Positions 43,802-52,725 of a stretch of DNA of 64,000 nucleotides are shown here, one piece after another. The notes under the pieces were generated by a model. That model searched no databases, had not been told where the DNA came from, and saw only the letters and a program-made list of their open reading frames with translations. Numbering within the stretch: position 1 is the first letter of the stretch; each line of letters begins with the position of its first letter. Source of the stretch: Thermoplasmatota archaeon (GTDB lineage Archaea; Thermoplasmatota; Penumbrarchaeia; Penumbrarchaeales; Penumbrarchaeaceae). The translations under genes and the position numbers were made by a program. The DNA lies in the NCBI GenBank assembly GCA_025457865.1, contig JALOTP010000001.1, positions 14,616 through 78,615 on the forward strand, read 5' to 3'.

Positions 43802-44305
43802 TCATTGGTCCTGCTTTATGCGTTCGATCCTGTGGCCCTTATAAGCAAGCCTGCCCGACCGCTTGACCAGGCTCTTCAACATGGTCGGAGTGAGCTCCAG
43901 TTCCTTAAGGAAATCACCAGAGAAGGTCCCCTCGTCCTCCACCATATGATAGACCTTCTCTTCCAGGTCGATGTACTTCTTCTCGTCCATCGCCGCAATG
44001 TAGAGGACATCCGATATCTCCGTGATGGAGCAGGAAGTGTTTATGTGGATCGATACATAGTAGGTGTGATAGATCTTCTCCTTGTTGAGCTGGGCATCTA
44101 TCTGCCAAGAGCTCTCGACCAGATGCATCTTCTCAAAGAAATCCAGGGCTTCCACACCCTCATCGCCGTACCTTTCCTCGACCGAGCGCTTTGAGACCCA
44201 TCCGTTGGCAGCCTCCTGGAAAACGGACTTCTTAATGGGTGAATCCATTGCCCTTAGAAGGGATACCATATCGGTCGGGTCATTGATGACCTTGATGCGT
44301 TTCAT
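43802..44305 (-). CDS. Conserved archaeal ArsR-like wHTH protein (COG4860-type)
   Basis: 'KVINDPTDMVSLL', 'LVESSWQ...YHTYY...IN', 'LKSLVKRS'; divergent from dnaG. Confidence 0.7.
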   Translation of the reverse strand: MKRIKVINDPTDMVSLLRAMDSPIKKSVFQEAANGWVSKRSVEERYGDEGVEALDFFEKMHLVESSWQIDAQLNKEKIYHTYYVSIHINTSCSITEISDVLYIAAMDEKKYIDLEEKVYHMVEDEGTFSGDFLKELELTPTMLKSLVKRSGRLAYKGHRIERIKQDQ

Positions 44306-44698: not shown

Positions 44699-46120
44699 AT
44701 GAACCTGGATCCAGCTACAACGAAATATCTGATAGAAGCGAAGCTCTCTGCCGACGGTATCGTGGAGAAACCCGATGTCGTGGGAGCCATCTTCGGACAG
44801 ACCGAAGGGCTCCTGGGCGATGAGCTGGACCTCCGCGACCTCCAGAAGACAGGGAGGATGGGTAGGATAGAGGTGGACATCTCCTCAAAGAAGGGGAAAT
44901 CAGAGGGAACGGTCCTCATACCATCAAGCCTCGATCAGGTGGAGACCGCCATCCTTGCTGCCTCCCTTGAGACCATAGACAGGATAGGTCCGTGCAGGGC
45001 GAAGGTATCCATCGAGAAGATAGAGGATGTGAGGATAACCAAGAAGCAGAAGATCATAGACAGGGCCAAGGAGCTGCTCACCAACATGCTGAGCCAGAGC
45101 AAGATATCTGGTCTTGACCTGTCCGATTCGGTCAGACAGGCAGTACAGGTCGATGAGGTCGCTCTCTACGGGGAGGACAAATGTCCGGCCGGTCCGAACA
45201 TAGACACCTCCGATGCCATAATCCTCGTCGAAGGCCGCTCGGACGTGATAAACCTGCTGAAGTACGGGATAAAGAACGTAATAGCCGTGGGCGGGACCAA
45301 CATCTCCCCCACGATCCAGAAGGTGACAGGCGAGAAGGTCGTTACAGCCTTCGTTGACGGCGACCGCGGCGGGGACCTGATACTCAAGGAGCTCTTCCAG
45401 ATAGCCGAGGTCGATTTCGTGTCAAAGGCCCCAAAATCCCTCGAGGTCGAGGAGCTCACCCAGAAACAGATAATCAAGGCCTTGAGGAACAAGGTACCCG
45501 TGGAGCAGTACATGGAGATGAACGACATAGGGGCCGAGTTCAAGGACAGACCAGACAGCGGTCCTAACGATAAGAAGAACGGTGAGGGCAAGAACTGGCA
45601 GGAGAGAAGGAATGAGAGACGGGAGATGCTCAGGGAGAAGTTCGAGAAGAACAGGCAGCCCAGGCCTCCCAGGGGCCCCGATGCCCCGGACAGGACCGAG
45701 GAACCCAGACCGGCCGTCATTGAGCAGGCTCCCCAGGCTAGCACCGAGGGCGAAGCATCTCATGACGAAACTGCTATGGAAGAGGCCCAGGCACCTCAAA
45801 GGACCGTTCCTACTGCCATGAGCACGGAAGTTACCAGGTACAGGGATATATTGAAGACACTTTCCGGGACTCTCAGGGCTATGCTGATAAATCCCAGCGG
45901 AGAGGTTGTCCAGGAGATAGCCGTCAGACAGCTTGCGGACACGCTCAGGACACCACCTGCGCCCATACACGCTGTGGTCTTCGACGGAATAATATCACAG
46001 AGGCTCCTGGACATCGCCGGGGAGCAGAGCATCAGGTTCCTCGTCGGCTCCAAGAAAGGCAACCTGACTAACGAGCCCGAGGGAGTGACGGTCCTCTCGA
46101 AGCTGGACCTTGATAACTGA
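44699..46120 (+). CDS. dnaG: Archaeal DnaG-like protein (TOPRIM; exosome-associated)
   Basis: 'GIVEKPDVVGAIFGQTEGLLG', 'IILVEGRSDVINL', 'AFVDGDRGG'. Confidence 0.96.
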   Translation: MNLDPATTKYLIEAKLSADGIVEKPDVVGAIFGQTEGLLGDELDLRDLQKTGRMGRIEVDISSKKGKSEGTVLIPSSLDQVETAILAASLETIDRIGPCRAKVSIEKIEDVRITKKQKIIDRAKELLTNMLSQSKISGLDLSDSVRQAVQVDEVALYGEDKCPAGPNIDTSDAIILVEGRSDVINLLKYGIKNVIAVGGTNISPTIQKVTGEKVVTAFVDGDRGGDLILKELFQIAEVDFVSKAPKSLEVEELTQKQIIKALRNKVPVEQYMEMNDIGAEFKDRPDSGPNDKKNGEGKNWQERRNERREMLREKFEKNRQPRPPRGPDAPDRTEEPRPAVIEQAPQASTEGEASHDETAMEEAQAPQRTVPTAMSTEVTRYRDILKTLSGTLRAMLINPSGEVVQEIAVRQLADTLRTPPAPIHAVVFDGIISQRLLDIAGEQSIRFLVGSKKGNLTNEPEGVTVLSKLDLDN

Positions 46121-46154: not shown

Positions 46155-47741
46155 ATGGTCAAGGCCAGGAAGCTGGCAGCAAGGTCGCCGGTCCCTGAGA
46201 CGGGGAATCCCGATAGCGCAGCTGTCAATATGTTCCATCTGGAGGATGTGCCAGATACCTCGATGATCCCCTTCTCGCCTGATCCATTGCAGAGGGTGAT
46301 AGGGCAGGACGAAGCTGTCATGCTGGCCCTTATCGCCGCTAGACAGAGGAGGCATCTCCTCCTCGTGGGACCTCCCGGAACTGGCAAATCGATGATAGCC
46401 CAGGCCTTGGCCTATCATCTCCCACCGCCCCGGACCCAGGTCTATGTCGTTTCCAATCCCGAGTACCCGGAGAGACCGTTCGTCCAGGTCAGGACCAGGT
46501 CCGAGGTCGAGGAGGATGAGCTGAGGGAATCCAGGGCCAGGGAGGTCCTGATCTCCCCCGTGGAAGCCCCCGTTGACGTTGCGGAGAAGCTCGGTTACAG
46601 GTGCGCTCGATGCGGTACCTATTCGCCCGAGGACCAGACAATATGCCCTAACTGCGGCGGACCCAAGGCACAAGCATCCAACAAGGTGGCAAGGGTGGAT
46701 ATGTCCAATATGCTCCAGGGCATAGAGGACATTCTAAAGGTCACATTGAACCAGATAGGGGCCCAGAGGCCCAGGGTACAGACCACTAGACTTGTGAACG
46801 GTAAGGAGGAAGTGGTCGTTTATGAACCAGCAGGACCAAAGATAAGGGTCCTGGACCAGAAAGCCCTTGAGGCAAGGAGGGAGAAGGAGAGGTCATCTCC
46901 CAAAAAGGTCCTCCTGCCTCTGAAGAGGAATAACTTCATCATGGCCACCGGAGCCTCGGAAACGGAGCTCCTTGGCGATGTGAGACATGACCCGTACGGC
47001 GGGCACAAGGGTCTTGGGACCCCACCTTACGAGAGGGTGGTCCCGGGCGCCATACACGAGGCCCATGAGGGGGTGCTTTTCATAGACGAGCTCCCTCACC
47101 TCGGCCATCTCCAGAGGTTCATACTGACGGCCATGCAGGAAAGGCAGTTCCCCATTTCAGGGAGGAACCCGCAGAGCGCGGGAGCGAGCGTTAAGGTGGA
47201 CAATGTGCCCTGCGACCTTGTTTTCGTCGGGGCATGCAATATCCAGGACCTGCACCATATAATCTCACCCCTTAGGTCCAGGATAACAGGGAGCGGTTAC
47301 GAGGTCCTTGTGGCGACCGCAATGCCAGACGATGGCCGCGGGAGGTCCGACTTCATCAGGTTCATATCCCAGGAGGTCAGGCTCGATGGCAGGATACCGC
47401 ATGTTGACCGTGGTGGTATAAAGGTGCTTCTCAAGTTCGCAAGGAACAAGGCTTTGATCATGGACAAGAGGAAGAAGGCCCTCACGCTGAGGTTGAGGGA
47501 TATGGGCGGGGTCATAAGGGCCGCTGGCGATATCGCTGTGGCCGAGAGCGCAGACCTTATCGGGGCCAGACATGTTGAGCGGGCCATTAGGAGAGGCCGC
47601 TCGGCCGAGGAACAGGTCAAGGAAAGGTTCGGTCATTACTACGGAGGCCTGGCCGGGGAGATGTCGGAATCCCAGGAGAGGCAGTATTCACCTTACAACT
47701 ATTGGAACGAGAACCCGGACGATATCAAGGGTTACGAGTGA
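46155..47741 (+). CDS. LonB-type AAA+ ATPase lacking the protease domain, with Zn-ribbon insertion
   Basis: Walker A GPPGTGKS; 'LLGDVRHDPYGG'; Walker B VLFIDE; 'LTLRLRDMGG'; CxxC-x10-CxxC in place of the TM insert; no Ser-Lys protease domain; ends in KGYE. Confidence 0.85.
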   Translation: MVKARKLAARSPVPETGNPDSAAVNMFHLEDVPDTSMIPFSPDPLQRVIGQDEAVMLALIAARQRRHLLLVGPPGTGKSMIAQALAYHLPPPRTQVYVVSNPEYPERPFVQVRTRSEVEEDELRESRAREVLISPVEAPVDVAEKLGYRCARCGTYSPEDQTICPNCGGPKAQASNKVARVDMSNMLQGIEDILKVTLNQIGAQRPRVQTTRLVNGKEEVVVYEPAGPKIRVLDQKALEARREKERSSPKKVLLPLKRNNFIMATGASETELLGDVRHDPYGGHKGLGTPPYERVVPGAIHEAHEGVLFIDELPHLGHLQRFILTAMQERQFPISGRNPQSAGASVKVDNVPCDLVFVGACNIQDLHHIISPLRSRITGSGYEVLVATAMPDDGRGRSDFIRFISQEVRLDGRIPHVDRGGIKVLLKFARNKALIMDKRKKALTLRLRDMGGVIRAAGDIAVAESADLIGARHVERAIRRGRSAEEQVKERFGHYYGGLAGEMSESQERQYSPYNYWNENPDDIKGYE

Positions 47742-47766: not shown

Positions 47767-49110
47767 ATGACGGGAGAAGAAAGCGTTGATAAGGTGAACG
47801 GTAGCGAGCGACCGGATGGTCCGGTGTCAGGCAATGAGGGGAATGAGGTGGTCAGCGGACCATCCACTGTTATGCCCCCGGCCGATGTACCGGTCGATGA
47901 TGGTTCAAGGACCAGATCGAACGAGGACCAGCCCGTTGGTGATGAACAGGCGGATGCACCGATCGAGGATTCATCCGCTGGTCCTGCGTTGGAAACAACC
48001 TCCGTCGTCCTCCCCCCCATAGATGATTATGGTTCGGACCTGGTCCTACCTCCGCAGGAGCTCTCTCTGCCCACAAGGGTGGATGTCATGGAACAGCTCA
48101 TTCAGAAGCACAGGTCCATGGTCGAAGCGTTCTCAAAGGAGAAAGAGGGCCAGGAGCAGGTCGGCCAGCTCCCCGAGGAAGAGAGCGACGAGGAGAAGGC
48201 AAGGAGGGATGAGGTTAACAAAGCGGTCCAGACCCTCAAGGCGGAACGCGGTTCCCTCCGCGTGAGGAACAAGGCCCTGAGCAAGGAGCTCTTCCAGCTA
48301 CTGGACAAGATGGACAGGCTGAAGGACCGGTCTAGTGAGATTTCTAGCCTTCAGAGGTATGTCTCCGACCTTGAATGGAAGATAGAGACAGAGGATATCA
48401 AGATAGAACAGGAGAGGAAACACCTTGACGAGATCAAGGCGACCATGAGGAAGCTGAGGGAGATCACGGACGGGTTCACACCCGATGAGATAATGCAGAG
48501 GACCTCGGATATCCAGGAGGAGATAGACCAGAACCTCCTACGGATGGAGGAGGCCCACAGGGCGATGCTGGAGAAGGTGGATGAGTCCAACCTCCACCAT
48601 GGAAAGTTCATGGACGCCCAGAAGAAGGCAAGGGAGGTCGAGGCCAGGAAACAATGGCTTACCCGAAGGGTGGAGCTCCACGCTGAGATGGGCAAGTTCT
48701 GGGAAGGACAGATCGATAATGCCAGGAAGCTGGATTCCGAGGAGACGGCAAGGCCCATAGGACCGCTCAGGGACCACCTCCTGTCAAGGATGGGCGAAAG
48801 GTCCGCAGAGAAGGGGCATGAAGGGGACCAGAGGTCCACCGAACAGCAGGCCCCCGGTACAACCGAGGCGGCGGCCAAGGGACAGAGCGATGAGCATGGT
48901 CCAAAGGGCCGGGTCCCTCGTGGCAGACCTCGTAAGAAGGTTGGTCCAGTTGAGACCGATAAAGTTTTTTCCGGGCCGCCGGAGGATACAACCCCAGCGA
49001 AGGAGACCGATCCGCCTGAGGGGGGTGCTGCCCCGGACAGGTCGACAGAACCGGCCCCCGCATTGGAGGAAGCTCCTCATTCTGAGGGCCAGACCGGAGG
49101 TGGGGCCTGA
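47767..49110 (+). CDS. Archaeal coiled-coil protein (COG1340-like) with disordered termini
   Basis: Central heptad-rich E/K/R region 'RRDEVNKAVQTLKAER...H.K..E...K'; SD AGGTGG before ATG 47767. Confidence 0.7.
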   Translation: MTGEESVDKVNGSERPDGPVSGNEGNEVVSGPSTVMPPADVPVDDGSRTRSNEDQPVGDEQADAPIEDSSAGPALETTSVVLPPIDDYGSDLVLPPQELSLPTRVDVMEQLIQKHRSMVEAFSKEKEGQEQVGQLPEEESDEEKARRDEVNKAVQTLKAERGSLRVRNKALSKELFQLLDKMDRLKDRSSEISSLQRYVSDLEWKIETEDIKIEQERKHLDEIKATMRKLREITDGFTPDEIMQRTSDIQEEIDQNLLRMEEAHRAMLEKVDESNLHHGKFMDAQKKAREVEARKQWLTRRVELHAEMGKFWEGQIDNARKLDSEETARPIGPLRDHLLSRMGERSAEKGHEGDQRSTEQQAPGTTEAAAKGQSDEHGPKGRVPRGRPRKKVGPVETDKVFSGPPEDTTPAKETDPPEGGAAPDRSTEPAPALEEAPHSEGQTGGGA

Positions 49111-50009
49111 TGCAGAACTTCGAGATAGCCCAGAAGATAAGGGAGATCAGGGAGAGGATCTCCGAGCTGAGAGAGGAGGAGGACATCCTCAACCTCAAGG
49201 TCCAGAACAAGATCAGGGAGGTCGAGGCCACAAGGGAGCGCAGGGACCAGCTCAACCTCCAGGTCAGGGAGCTCTCTTCAAAGCCCAGGGAGATCCTCGA
49301 AAAGCGCAAGGAGGCCTGGGATAACATCTCCGGCACCAATGATGAGAGGAGACGGATATTCCGGGATATGCAGCCCTATCTCCACAGGATAGGAGAGCTC
49401 AGGAAGATAAGGGACGCTTTCAATGCCGCCAGCAGGGGGACGATGGAGAGGCTTCTGGCGAACCTCTCATCCACCAGGCAGGACCTGCTCAGTTCGGACC
49501 TGTCGCTCAAGAACGAGCTCTACATGTTCGATCTGCTCTTCGAGCTCAGGGACAGGGTGCTTGTCAAGCTCGAAGCAGATAAGGTCCACAAAGAGATAGT
49601 TAGGGTCAAGGAGGTGGACCTTGCCAAATACAACCACTTCCTTGCCGAGATCGAGGGCCGCATAGGTGATATGAAGAACCTATCCCACGAGGGTCTCATG
49701 ACGGCCAAGGAGATATGGTCTAGGAGGGACGAGGTCAGAGAGCAGTCCCAGAAGGAGCATAGGGCCTTTCTCGACGGACAGAAGGAGATATCGCACCTCA
49801 GGAAGAAATGGTACGATAAGCGCAGGGAGATACAGGACCTCTACAGGGAGATAGACCAGTGGAACGCCGAGTTCAAGAAGTCCCCGACCGAGCGCAGGCA
49901 GTCCGATATGTCACGGAAGCAGGCGGAGGCCGTAGAGAAGTTCAAGAGGGGTGAGAAGCTCTCCCTAGAGGAGCTGTCCCTGGTGGTGGAATCAGGCCAG
50001 ATGAAATGA
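49110..50009 (+). CDS. Archaeal coiled-coil protein (COG1340-like)
   Basis: Entirely helical; C-terminal 'EKFKRGEKLSLEEL' motif; stop/start overlap with the upstream gene. Confidence 0.8.
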   Translation: MQNFEIAQKIREIRERISELREEEDILNLKVQNKIREVEATRERRDQLNLQVRELSSKPREILEKRKEAWDNISGTNDERRRIFRDMQPYLHRIGELRKIRDAFNAASRGTMERLLANLSSTRQDLLSSDLSLKNELYMFDLLFELRDRVLVKLEADKVHKEIVRVKEVDLAKYNHFLAEIEGRIGDMKNLSHEGLMTAKEIWSRRDEVREQSQKEHRAFLDGQKEISHLRKKWYDKRREIQDLYREIDQWNAEFKKSPTERRQSDMSRKQAEAVEKFKRGEKLSLEELSLVVESGQMK

Positions 50010-50692: not shown

Positions 50693-51569
50693 GCTTAGGA
50701 ACTGGGTGACTGCGGGGGAGATCGCCTCCAAGGCCAGGGACCTAGGAGCTAGGATGGTGGAGGAAGATATCTCTTACCTTGAGGTGGCCGATGCCGTTGA
50801 GGACTTCATCGTCGAGAAGGGAGCGTTAGTGGGTTTTCCGGTCAATATTGCGGTGAACGATATCGCGGCCCACTACACACCGAGGCCAGATGAGAGGACG
50901 AAGTTCCGCTACGGTGACCTGGTGAAGATCGATGTCGGCGTCCATCTGGACGGTTGCATAGGCGATACGGCCAGAACGGTGGAGGTCGGCTCCGACACCT
51001 ACAGACAGCTCTCGCTAGCTTCCAAGAGGGCCCTTGAGTCCGCCCTGGAGCTCATCAGGGGCGGAATATCGCTCTCTTCCATTGGTTCGATCGTCGAGAG
51101 GACCATGAACTCCATGGGGTTCAGGCCCATAGTCAATCTGACCGGCCATTCCATAGAGAGGTACAACCTCCATGCCGGTATATCGGTTCCGAACTATGAT
51201 GATAGGGGGAGCGAGTTCCTACCATCCGGTACGATCCTGGCAATAGAACCATTCTCCACGACCGGAGTTGGCGAGGTAGTCTCTTACAAGAGATCGAACA
51301 TCTACCGCTTCGTGAGGCCCAGGTCCAAGCTGAAGGAAGAGCTGGAAAAGGTCTCAAGTATTGTGCAGGAGGGGTACCCCAAGCTCCCGTTCTCCGAGAG
51401 ATGGCTGGAGAAGAGACATCCTTCCTGCGAATCGGCCTTGAACGGACTGGTGAGGTCCGGGTCCGTCTATGCCTATCCCATCCTAAGGGAGACCTCCGGC
51501 GGCATGGTCGCCCAATGGGAGCATACTGTCCATGTTACGGATAAGGGGTGCAGGATACTCACAGCATGA
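50679..51569 (+). CDS. map: Methionine aminopeptidase type II
   Basis: 'FPVNIAVNDIAAHYTP', 'KIDVGVHLDGCIGDTA', 'NLTGH', 'AIEPF', 'QWEHT'. Confidence 0.97.
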   Translation: MEEAELRNWVTAGEIASKARDLGARMVEEDISYLEVADAVEDFIVEKGALVGFPVNIAVNDIAAHYTPRPDERTKFRYGDLVKIDVGVHLDGCIGDTARTVEVGSDTYRQLSLASKRALESALELIRGGISLSSIGSIVERTMNSMGFRPIVNLTGHSIERYNLHAGISVPNYDDRGSEFLPSGTILAIEPFSTTGVGEVVSYKRSNIYRFVRPRSKLKEELEKVSSIVQEGYPKLPFSERWLEKRHPSCESALNGLVRSGSVYAYPILRETSGGMVAQWEHTVHVTDKGCRILTA

Positions 51570-51579
51570 GGTGCTTGAT

Positions 51580-52725
51580 ATGGGTGCGACCAGGAGCGGT
51601 GCAAAAGCAAGGAAGGGCCTGACCTATGCCGGTTCGGGAGTGGATGTCTCTGCCGAGGGCAAAGCGATCAGGTCCCTGATAGATGCCCTTACCTTCCAAA
51701 GGAAGGGGACCGGCAGACCTGTGGACATAGGGGCGCATTTCACTGGACTTATAGACTTCGGCGACCGATACCTATCCCTCTGCACGGACGGGGTCGGTTC
51801 CAAGATGCTCATTGCAGAATCTTTAGGGAAGTGGGATACGGTCGGGATCGATTGTATGGCCATGAACGTCAACGATATGATATGCGTCGGGGCCGAACCA
51901 CTTGCATTCGTCGATTATCTTGCTGCCCATCAGCCTTCAGAAGAGGTCCTGTCGGAGATAGGCCGTGGTCTCAATGAAGGAGCAAGGAGGGCTAATCTAT
52001 CCATCATCGGTGGCGAAACGGCATCGCTCCCCGATATGGTCAAAGGGTACGACCTTGCAGGTACCTGCCTTGGTCATGTGAGGAAGGATGAGGTCATAAC
52101 TGGTGCGTCCATCAGAGAGGGCGATATCCTCATTGGCCTTCGTTCCAGCGGTCTGCATTCCAATGGTTTCTCCCTCGTGAGGAGGATAATTAAGGCCAAC
52201 CGCCTCGGGTACGATCTCACGCTCGAGGGGCTGGTGAATGGCAGCAGGTGGAAGAACCTGGAGGGCGGACCAGGGGACAAGGGATGCGTCGAAGCGTGGG
52301 CCAGCAAAGAGCCAGGTCTGACGATCGGCCAGGCTCTCCTTGAACCGACGAGGATCTATGTCAAGGAGGTCCTTACCATGCTTGGAAAGGTCAAGAAGGG
52401 CAGCGTCCACGGTCTTGCCCATATAACCGGTGGTGGCCTTAGGAACCTTGTCAGGCTCAAGAAGGGAGTGTCGTTCGTGATAGACAGGCCTATAGAGGTG
52501 CCCCCGATCTTCCATATGCTGCAGGTCCTGGGAGATGTCGATGAGGCTGAGATGTACAGCACGTTCAACATGGGCATGGGCTTCTGCCTGGTAGTCGATA
52601 AAAAGGTCTCGAAGGAGGTCAGAACGGCCTTGAAAGGCGCCGGTGCAATGGAGGTGGGGTACATATCCAAGGGGAGCGGTGTGCTTCTGAGGGGTGCCGG
52701 ATTGCATTTCGACGGTTATATCTGA
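51580..52725 (+). CDS. purM: Phosphoribosylformylglycinamidine cyclo-ligase (AIR synthetase)
   Basis: 'TYAGSGVD', 'TDGVGSK', 'GGETA', 'SSGLHSNGFSL', 'HITGGG', 'FNMGMG'. Confidence 0.97.
   Translation: MGATRSGAKARKGLTYAGSGVDVSAEGKAIRSLIDALTFQRKGTGRPVDIGAHFTGLIDFGDRYLSLCTDGVGSKMLIAESLGKWDTVGIDCMAMNVNDMICVGAEPLAFVDYLAAHQPSEEVLSEIGRGLNEGARRANLSIIGGETASLPDMVKGYDLAGTCLGHVRKDEVITGASIREGDILIGLRSSGLHSNGFSLVRRIIKANRLGYDLTLEGLVNGSRWKNLEGGPGDKGCVEAWASKEPGLTIGQALLEPTRIYVKEVLTMLGKVKKGSVHGLAHITGGGLRNLVRLKKGVSFVIDRPIEVPPIFHMLQVLGDVDEAEMYSTFNMGMGFCLVVDKKVSKEVRTALKGAGAMEVGYISKGSGVLLRGAGLHFDGYI

Follow-up and report, generated by a model that had tools for sequence, protein, structure and literature searches.

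A Lon-type AAA+ ATPase without a protease domain, encoded next to dnaG in Thermoplasmatota, as a candidate activator of the 20S proteasome

Introduction

What does a Lon-type ATPase do when it carries no protease of its own? The question is raised by an open reading frame (ORF) in a 64,000-nucleotide stretch of DNA from a Thermoplasmatota archaeon (GenBank assembly GCA_025457865.1, contig JALOTP010000001.1, positions 14,616 to 78,615; this whole stretch is referred to below as the window). A preliminary description of the window proposed that the product of this ORF might serve the 20S proteasome through a short tail ending in Gly-Tyr-Glu. We use the working name LonL for the clade of zinc-ribbon LonB paralogues without a protease to which the protein belongs. 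Operationally, LonL is defined by a LonB-like AAA+ module, a CxxC-x10-CxxC insert, the lack of a transmembrane segment and of a protease, and a position on the LonL side of the tree; alignment, motif spacing and tree place the window protein in this clade by each of these features.

As far as is known, every archaeal proteasome activator (PAN, Cdc48/VAT and AMA) belongs to the classical AAA clade. LonL proteins are labelled `ATP-binding protein' or `putative Lon protease homolog' in the databases, and a literature search found no description of the family. A `protease Lon homolog' was detected alongside LonB in a proteome study of Cuniculiplasma (PMC7285479); it is probably a LonL orthologue. 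We suggest, with a rough probability of 0.45, that LonL is a soluble, Lon-derived unfoldase whose tail docks on the 20S proteasome and whose clients are linked to DnaG or nucleic acids. What was established directly is presented first: how the protein is built, with its ATPase and pore motifs intact, how far its tail is conserved, which genes lie beside it, how its clade is structured and in which lineages it occurs.

Results

Domain architecture

The LonB ATPase motifs that had been listed in the preliminary description (GPPGTGKS, DVRHDPYGG, VLFIDE and LRLRDMGG) were each located in the ORF (Table 1). A TTG codon at position 46110, 45 nt 5' of the start codon used here, is an alternative start. 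The NCBIfam model of LonB (TIGR00764) matches LonL over positions 17–87 and 170–402 of 608 only, with 314.8 bits, which is below the curated cut-off of 516.6 bits; the canonical LonB encoded elsewhere in the same assembly, which has both the transmembrane hairpin and the protease, scores 834 bits. The best family matches are LonB and Mg_chelatase, and the PAN and FtsH models cover the Walker A region only. The closest solved structure is that of Thermococcus onnurineus LonB (TonLonB; PDB entries 3k1j and 4zpx), matched at E ~1e-72 over the AAA+ module only. A Foldseek search with the AlphaFold model of LonL placed LonB first (1e-27) and LonC as the second group; RuvB, ComM, RuvBL and MCM follow after Lon, with RuvB at an E value of 1e-7 or weaker. 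The sequence matches to RuvB, ComM and MCM are weak and are restricted to the Walker A region. Judged by these matches, LonL does not belong to the classical AAA clade, unlike PAN, Cdc48 and AMA.

An alignment of 51 LonL sequences was used to identify invariant positions. Besides the Walker A and B motifs and the four cysteines of the zinc ribbon, they include Tyr281, N362, R374, R376, R448, P513, Y514, W517 and Y527; within LRLRDMGG, L445, L447, R448, G451 and G452 are invariant. The invariant set covers sensor and arginine residues of the ATPase. The insertion domain, as modelled by AlphaFold, consists of a helix, the zinc ribbon, a disordered linker and a three-stranded sheet. The ribbon itself matches the Pfam families DZR and Zn_ribbon_3, both weakly. 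No transmembrane segment was found in LonL, the highest hydropathy over 19 residues being 1.09 compared with 2.43 for the hairpin of the LonB from the same genome, and the earlier statement that a CARC-x10-CPNC ribbon takes the place of the membrane insertion was confirmed.

The absence of the protease was likewise borne out: LonL gave no match to Lon_C, positions 403–608 of TIGR00764 remained unmatched and the protein ends at ...GYE. The TonLonB alignment runs only as far as the linker that precedes the protease, after which LonL has 38 more residues, so that by the alignment its tail starts exactly where the protease domain of LonB starts, on the exit face of the ring. The C-terminal sequence is SPYNYWNENPDDIKGYE. 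Residues 511–528 have predicted local distance difference test (pLDDT) values below 50 and are predicted to be disordered (the mean pLDDT of the model is 70). The aromatic cluster SPYNYWN within the tail degenerates outside the core of Thermoplasmatota.

Pore loop-1 is nearly identical in the two families (LLGDVRHDPYGG..LGTPPYERV in LonL versus LLGDVRHDPFQSGGLGTPAHERV in LonB). The corresponding residues 209–232 of TonLonB have been named pore loop-1 (PMC9569914). A loop that is almost unchanged from LonB and that carries an invariant aromatic residue speaks for the translocation of polypeptides. A role on nucleic acids, for which the zinc ribbon and the gene neighbourhood described below leave room, we regard as less likely.

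Table 1. Features of the LonL gene, its product and the adjacent genes (window coordinates).
Feature	Position	Strand	Basis or remark
LonL ORF: LonB-like AAA+ ATPase, soluble, without protease	46155..47741	+	Open frame, 528 amino acids plus stop
Walker A, GPPGTGKS, residues 72–79	46368..46391	+	Invariant in 51 aligned orthologues
Family-specific insertion domain, approximately residues 112–247	46488..46895	+	At the position of the LonB membrane hairpin; not aligned to TonLonB
Cys4 zinc ribbon CARC-x10-CPNC, residues 150–167 (C150, C153, C164, C167)	46602..46655	+	Four cysteines invariant in 51 orthologues
Pore loop-1, residues 274–298 (GDVRHDPYGG...; DVRHDPYGG is 275–283)	46974..47048	+	Aligns with TonLonB 209–232; Tyr281 invariant
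Walker B, VLFIDE, residues 307–312	47073..47090	+	D311 and E312 invariant
LRLRDMGG, sensor-2 region of the lid domain, residues 445–452	47487..47510	+	Aligned to the TonLonB lid
C-terminal tail in place of the S16 protease domain, residues 491–528	47625..47738	+	Begins where the TonLonB alignment stops
Aromatic cluster SPYNYWN, residues 512–518	47688..47708	+	P513, Y514 and W517 invariant among 51 orthologues
Terminal G-Y-E, partial HbYX-type motif	47730..47738	+	Column entropy of orthologue tails
dnaG, archaeal Toprim protein/exosome subunit, conserved upstream partner	44699..46120	+	Pfam Toprim matches
Two coiled-coil genes 3' of LonL	47767–49110, 49110–50009	+	Stop/start overlap; 25-nt gap after LonL

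Conservation of the C-terminal motif

The evidence for a docking tail was sought in the orthologues, for which 204 distinct LonL tails from the phylum Thermoplasmatota were pooled and anchored at the C-terminus. Position −2 is Tyr or Phe in 201 of the 204, the −3/−2 pairs being GY (166), MF (26), AY (4), SY (4) and IY (1), and the other three tails having the end ...YIG. At −2 the column entropy amounts to 0.66 bits and at −3 to 0.97 bits, against 2.66 bits at −1, 3.38 bits at −4 and 2.92 bits at −5, and an acidic pair at −6/−7 is likewise conserved. The DnaG C-termini of these loci, which served as the control, give 2.6–3.7 bits at every position. The preliminary description had proposed to check whether the penultimate Tyr is invariant in an otherwise variable tail, and had taken its lack of conservation as speaking against a proteasome activator; in the orthologues Tyr or Phe is kept almost throughout at −2, and positions −1, −4 and −5 vary.

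The background was estimated from the ORFs of at least 300 residues in the genome itself, 3.3% of which match a relaxed form, given below, of the HbYX motif (hydrophobic residue, tyrosine, any residue) and 0.4% of which end in GYx. Since these proportions are so low, the family-wide pattern is, as judged from the sequences, not explicable by chance. The preliminary caveat that a lone GYx end is weak evidence holds at this frequency, and the signal is therefore the conservation across orthologues. The ORF at 51532–52725 (+), with 397 residues and the end ...DGYI, is the only other long ORF of the window with a G-Y-x end; it is presumably the `PurM' mentioned in the preliminary description. This relaxed pattern, [LVIMGAPFYW][FY]x>, which admits Gly and was used for archaeal proteasomal ATPases by Forouzan et al. 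(PMC3493965), is matched by 197 of the 204 tails.

The type of ending shifts between lineages without loss of the motif. Most lineages have GY-x; Methanomassiliicoccales and Methanomethylophilaceae have M-F-[HNSRL] or M-Y-x, and Thermoplasmataceae have SYE, SYQ, IYN or GYR. The S-Y-E and S-Y-Q ends of Thermoplasma LonL are missed by published searches for the HbYX pattern. Outside the phylum, members resembling Altiarchaeales end in GYV, GYG, GYR or SYL, those of Jordarchaeales in RYG, and those of Micrarchaeota and Anstonellales in ...KDAV, without an aromatic residue. In Thermoplasmatota, PAN itself mostly ends in M-F-[AGTH], with Phe in place of the textbook Tyr, and the ends of LonL and PAN within one genome can be compared directly: SMFH versus VMFA in genome G164 and TMFN versus HMFG in genome G126. 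The residue at the Hb position is Gly in the window protein and in most orthologues, and the M-F-x form, as in PAN, accounts for ~13%.

Clade structure and distribution

A word-indexed search found more than 100 homologues in Thermoplasmatota with 490–550 residues and 57–91% identity. When 1.8 billion cluster representatives were searched with a profile, the scores dropped sharply from the LonL members to the canonical LonBs, which match at ~330 bits in two separate stretches. Between the two lie relatives of 440–520 residues that match over their full length in a single stretch. The named relatives outside Thermoplasmatota belong to Jordarchaeales (Asgard), Altiarchaeales, and Micrarchaeota and Anstonellales (DPANN), and each of them has kept CxxC-x10-CxxC and is without the protease. 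In a maximum-likelihood tree of 29 LonL and 31 LonB sequences all of the LonL proteins are set apart by a single branch, supported at 98% in the Shimodaira–Hasegawa-like approximate likelihood-ratio test (SH-aLRT). Because the 29 protease-less proteins form one side of this branch, LonL is, on the present tree, an old sister lineage of LonB and not a recent truncation.

A scan of 201 genomes of the phylum gave bimodal scores: ~90 genomes have LonL (>520 bits) together with LonB, and the remainder have LonB only. In representative genomes PAN is present in 16 of the 18 with LonL and in 16 of the 24 without it. PAN was found in many Thermoplasmatota lineages, and the classical Thermoplasma group is without it; Thermoplasmataceae have LonL and no PAN.

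Proteolytic background of the genome

The source assembly (Thermoplasmatota, 2.7 Mb) is 89% complete. A Lon protease domain encoded separately from its motor, which the preliminary description had named as a finding that would speak against a proteasomal role, was sought in the genome. No such stand-alone domain was found, the only Lon_C match in the genome lying inside the canonical LonB, and a separately encoded protease partner for LonL was rejected on this basis. The 20S proteasome of the genome comprises two α-type subunits and one β-type subunit (contig positions C49:8269–8820 and C48:22585–23103). The second α subunit has a long charged C-terminal extension. Both α subunits, read by eye, keep the pocket residues P17, G19, V24, Y26, K66 and L81, in T. 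acidophilum numbering.

The idea that LonL makes up for an absent PAN did not survive. The genome has two PAN genes (C76:19697–21235 and C26:16254–17579, with the ends ...SMFA and ...NMFR) and Cdc48 with the end ...DYYG, and the distribution of PAN given above runs the same way; Thermoplasmataceae are the exception that fits a replacement. We propose that in this organism LonL would be an extra activator beside two PANs and Cdc48 and not a substitute for PAN. An ORF of ~1067 residues (stop to stop) at C52:6379–9582 has a classical AAA domain at its C-terminus, joined to a large N-terminal region that looks extracellular and contains many transmembrane segments. Its product may be a membrane-bound AAA protein; it ends in ...EEVQEES, with no HbYX motif.

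Gene context

The strongest contextual signal, which the preliminary description did not contain, is the conserved pairing of LonL with dnaG. In the window 34 nt separate the dnaG stop from the LonL start codon. The synteny was examined at 80 Thermoplasmatota LonL loci from species-representative genomes, two of which are cut by a contig end. At 75 of the 78 assessable loci dnaG lies directly 5' of LonL on the same strand, and at three there is no dnaG; the conserved LonL core follows the dnaG stop at a median distance of 98 nt, and the genes abut or overlap. The adjacency is also found in six Thermoplasmataceae genomes. An archaeal dnaG–LonL pair of the Methanomethylophilaceae type and with the end ...TMFN, is on a contig filed under `Eggerthellaceae bacterium' (L070; CAVJRF010000011.1), which is probably a mis-binned archaeal contig.

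Two of the distant LonL members lie near a gene for a true DnaG orthologue, with which the LonL gene overlaps in L126 and from which it is separated by one gene in L123. The L126 protein has no aromatic end (...EQFGEN) despite the overlap with dnaG. The link to DnaG can thus exist without the tail motif, and this speaks for a tail partner other than DnaG. In the remaining distant lineages dnaG is not adjacent, and the neighbours are Hjc (twice), uracil-DNA glycosylase (UDG), PCNA, XPB and a Clp1-like kinase. The recurrence of nucleic-acid genes beside LonL suggests clients on DNA or RNA. The Hjc gene overlaps the LonL stop codon in L124 (1755–2120) and L126 (2358–2726), two distant lineages that are probably small-genome archaea, and in L125 the gene overlapping the LonL stop codon encodes UDG. 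Hjc and UDG were rejected as general neighbours of LonL, being found at none of 92 Thermoplasmatota loci and in a few distant lineages only.

Archaeal DnaG is described as an exosome subunit in PMC3672285 and PMC4227792, and exosome and proteasome subunit genes are stated to share an archaeal superoperon (Koonin, 2001, as cited in PMC3095777). To the extent of these accounts, an exosome–proteasome gene linkage is known and the dnaG–LonL pair is compatible with a link to the proteasome.

The two coiled-coil genes that follow LonL may be on the same transcript. The product of the first has long, acidic, Pro-rich, disordered ends, and the second gives a weak match to DUF7121 only. As conserved partners of LonL both were rejected, since tblastn finds them only at the two closest loci (L011 and L012); such sequences diverge fast, and the tblastn result is not conclusive. 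Upstream, an ArsR-family regulator (43802–44305, − strand; PF09824, E = 1.6e-45) is divergent from dnaG, and the 393-nt intergenic region between the two probably holds the operon promoter.

Discussion

A proposed Lon-derived unfoldase for the 20S proteasome

From these observations we infer a hexamer, an unfolding activity, docking on the 20S proteasome and the nature of the clients. LonL would form a soluble hexamer acting as an ATP-driven protein unfoldase. Its zinc-ribbon insertion domain, on the entry face at the position of the LonB hairpin, would pick the clients, and pore loop-1 with the invariant Tyr281 would thread them through the ring. A flexible tail of ~40 residues would leave the ring where LonB has its protease and, with its end [G/M/A/S]-[Y/F]-x-COOH, would plug into the inter-subunit pockets of the 20S α ring, so that the proteasome would stand in for the lost Lon protease. 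As LonL is encoded directly after dnaG, the clients are probably linked to DnaG, the exosome or nucleic acids.

How well the tails would suit this purpose depends on the Hb position. Within HbYX, the `YX' part supports binding to 20S and the `Hb' part drives gate opening, and Rpt1, which has a penultimate Tyr without Hb, is termed a partial HbYX (PMC12352868). With Gly at Hb, the GY-x tails would by this account be expected to dock, although they might not open the gate by themselves. The MF-x tails, by their sequence, are full HbYX motifs.

Several observations weigh against a proteasomal role. Most LonL proteins, with Gly at Hb, have only a partial HbYX motif. LonL in genome G201 lacks the motif altogether (...KDAV), and the genome still encodes 20S α and β subunits; the core function of the clade thus does not depend on the motif, and the notion that motif-less DPANN LonL proteins occur only in proteasome-less genomes was rejected on the same grounds. 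LonL and PAN show no inverse relation (16 of 18 versus 16 of 24 genomes). The neighbours in other lineages (DnaG, Hjc, UDG, PCNA, XPB and the Clp1-like kinase) belong to nucleic-acid metabolism and not to proteolysis. A penultimate C-terminal Tyr can also serve other partners: the end ...DDLYG of p97 binds PUB and PUL domains.

Alternative explanations

In the main alternative, which is possible but less probable than docking on 20S, LonL is a stand-alone or DnaG-coupled unfoldase or remodeller and the tail binds DnaG, another partner or the ring itself, and not the proteasome. Such a protein might assemble, disassemble or recycle DnaG–exosome complexes or nucleic-acid-bound proteins, and binding of the tail to the ring would be a matter of autoregulation or hexamer stabilization. 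The abutting or overlapping dnaG of nearly every Thermoplasmatota locus fits well here, as do the DnaG orthologues near LonL in the distant L123 and L126, the genes of DNA and RNA metabolism beside it elsewhere and the motif-less LonL of a genome with a 20S proteasome. The L126 gene is double-edged, since it overlaps dnaG while its product lacks the aromatic end; the DnaG link thus does not need the motif, which would serve another partner. The shape of the motif, free at −1, aromatic at −2 and small or hydrophobic at −3, is moreover best matched by the α ring, all the more so with an MF-x form identical to that of PAN, and DnaG is universal in archaea whereas only about half of the phylum carries LonL. 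A nucleic-acid motor, whether a helicase or translocase that forms a split primosome resembling T7 gp4 together with DnaG or one that drives branch migration on the side of Hjc, is improbable. A zinc ribbon that is universal in the clade would suit it, given that archaeal DnaG lacks the bacterial zinc-binding domain, and so would the neighbours (DnaG, Hjc, UDG, PCNA and XPB) and the appearance of RuvB, ComM, RuvBL and MCM as the next fold matches after Lon. Pore loop-1, however, is nearly that of LonB, a protein translocase, the Foldseek values are far apart (1e-27 for LonB versus 1e-7 or weaker for RuvB) and a conserved aromatic motif at the extreme C-terminus would be left unexplained.

Most improbable of all is that LonL is a partner of the membrane-bound LonB, forming mixed rings with it or acting as a soluble adaptor or regulator that feeds the LonB protease. 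The AAA+ modules are homologous, and every LonL-positive genome scanned has a canonical LonB, but in about half of the phylum LonB occurs with no LonL. The two form deeply separate clades with no gene linkage between them, and the AAA+ ring fused to LonB already caps its protease chamber. There is also a bolder form of the proposal that LonL docks on 20S, which we consider unlikely, though somewhat less so than a nucleic-acid motor: LonL may be a fourth class of archaeal proteasomal ATPase that joins the 20S proteasome physically to the DnaG machinery (exosome cap or primosome). Its zinc-ribbon crown would then take hold of DnaG or of proteins carried by nucleic acid to which DnaG is bound; the Lon motor would strip these off and unfold them, and the C-terminal tails would pass them on to the proteasome.

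Significance

If LonL does dock on 20S as we favour, a Lon-derived unfoldase would represent an independent evolutionary route to a proteasomal ATPase, in which a self-contained protease dropped its own peptidase and borrowed another. The picture would also have to be revised for Thermoplasma, the model organism of 20S proteasome structure; a single proteasomal ATPase has been counted in Thermoplasmata (PMC3493965). The tight linkage to dnaG offers a handle on why archaeal exosome and proteasome genes travel together, and physical coupling, if true, would supply a mechanism for this long-noted linkage.

Comparison with known systems

Archaeal LonB (TIGR00764; MEROPS S16) shares with LonL the N-terminal helix, Walker A and B, the long pore loop-1, the RKH-loop region, sensor-1, sensor-2, the arginine finger and the lid domain. 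LonL differs in having a Cys4 zinc-ribbon domain of ~135 residues and not a transmembrane hairpin, and a tail of ~40 residues with a [G/M/A][Y/F]x end instead of the S16 Ser-Lys protease; it scores below the TIGR00764 cut-off and forms a separate clade (98% support). LonC from Meiothermus taiwanensis (PDB entry 4fw9) is likewise a Lon-family variant with an altered domain set, in the opposite sense: LonC has kept the protease and has a dead ATPase, whereas LonL has an intact ATPase and no protease.

Among motors that dock on a separate peptidase, ClpX resembles the proposed LonL model in using a Cys4 zinc module for substrates and adaptors and a short motif for docking. ClpX is from another AAA+ lineage, its zinc domain is N-terminal and it docks by internal IGF loops, and there is no ClpP here. 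The GQYL ends of mycobacterial Mpa and Bpa/PafE, like the LonL end, have a penultimate Tyr without the classical hydrophobic residue before it and dock on 20S; these proteins are unrelated to LonL, the proteasome is bacterial and Gly is at −4 and not at −3.

The HbYX-dependent archaeal proteasomal ATPases are PAN, Cdc48/VAT and AMA (PMC3493965), which have an AAA+ ring, a flexible C-terminus and an end of the type small/hydrophobic-[Y/F]-any; for LonL the end is observed, and the ring and its docking are predicted. The context in which these activators work is present in the LonL genome, namely a 20S proteasome with canonical α pockets, and the MF-x form of LonL is the PAN end of the same genomes. 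LonL comes from the Lon branch of AAA+, mostly has Gly at Hb and has no oligonucleotide/oligosaccharide-binding (OB), coiled-coil or double-psi-barrel N-domain, carrying its zinc ribbon inside the ATPase instead. What appears to be new, as far as the sequences indicate, is a predicted docking tail of the proteasome type on a motor of the Lon clade.

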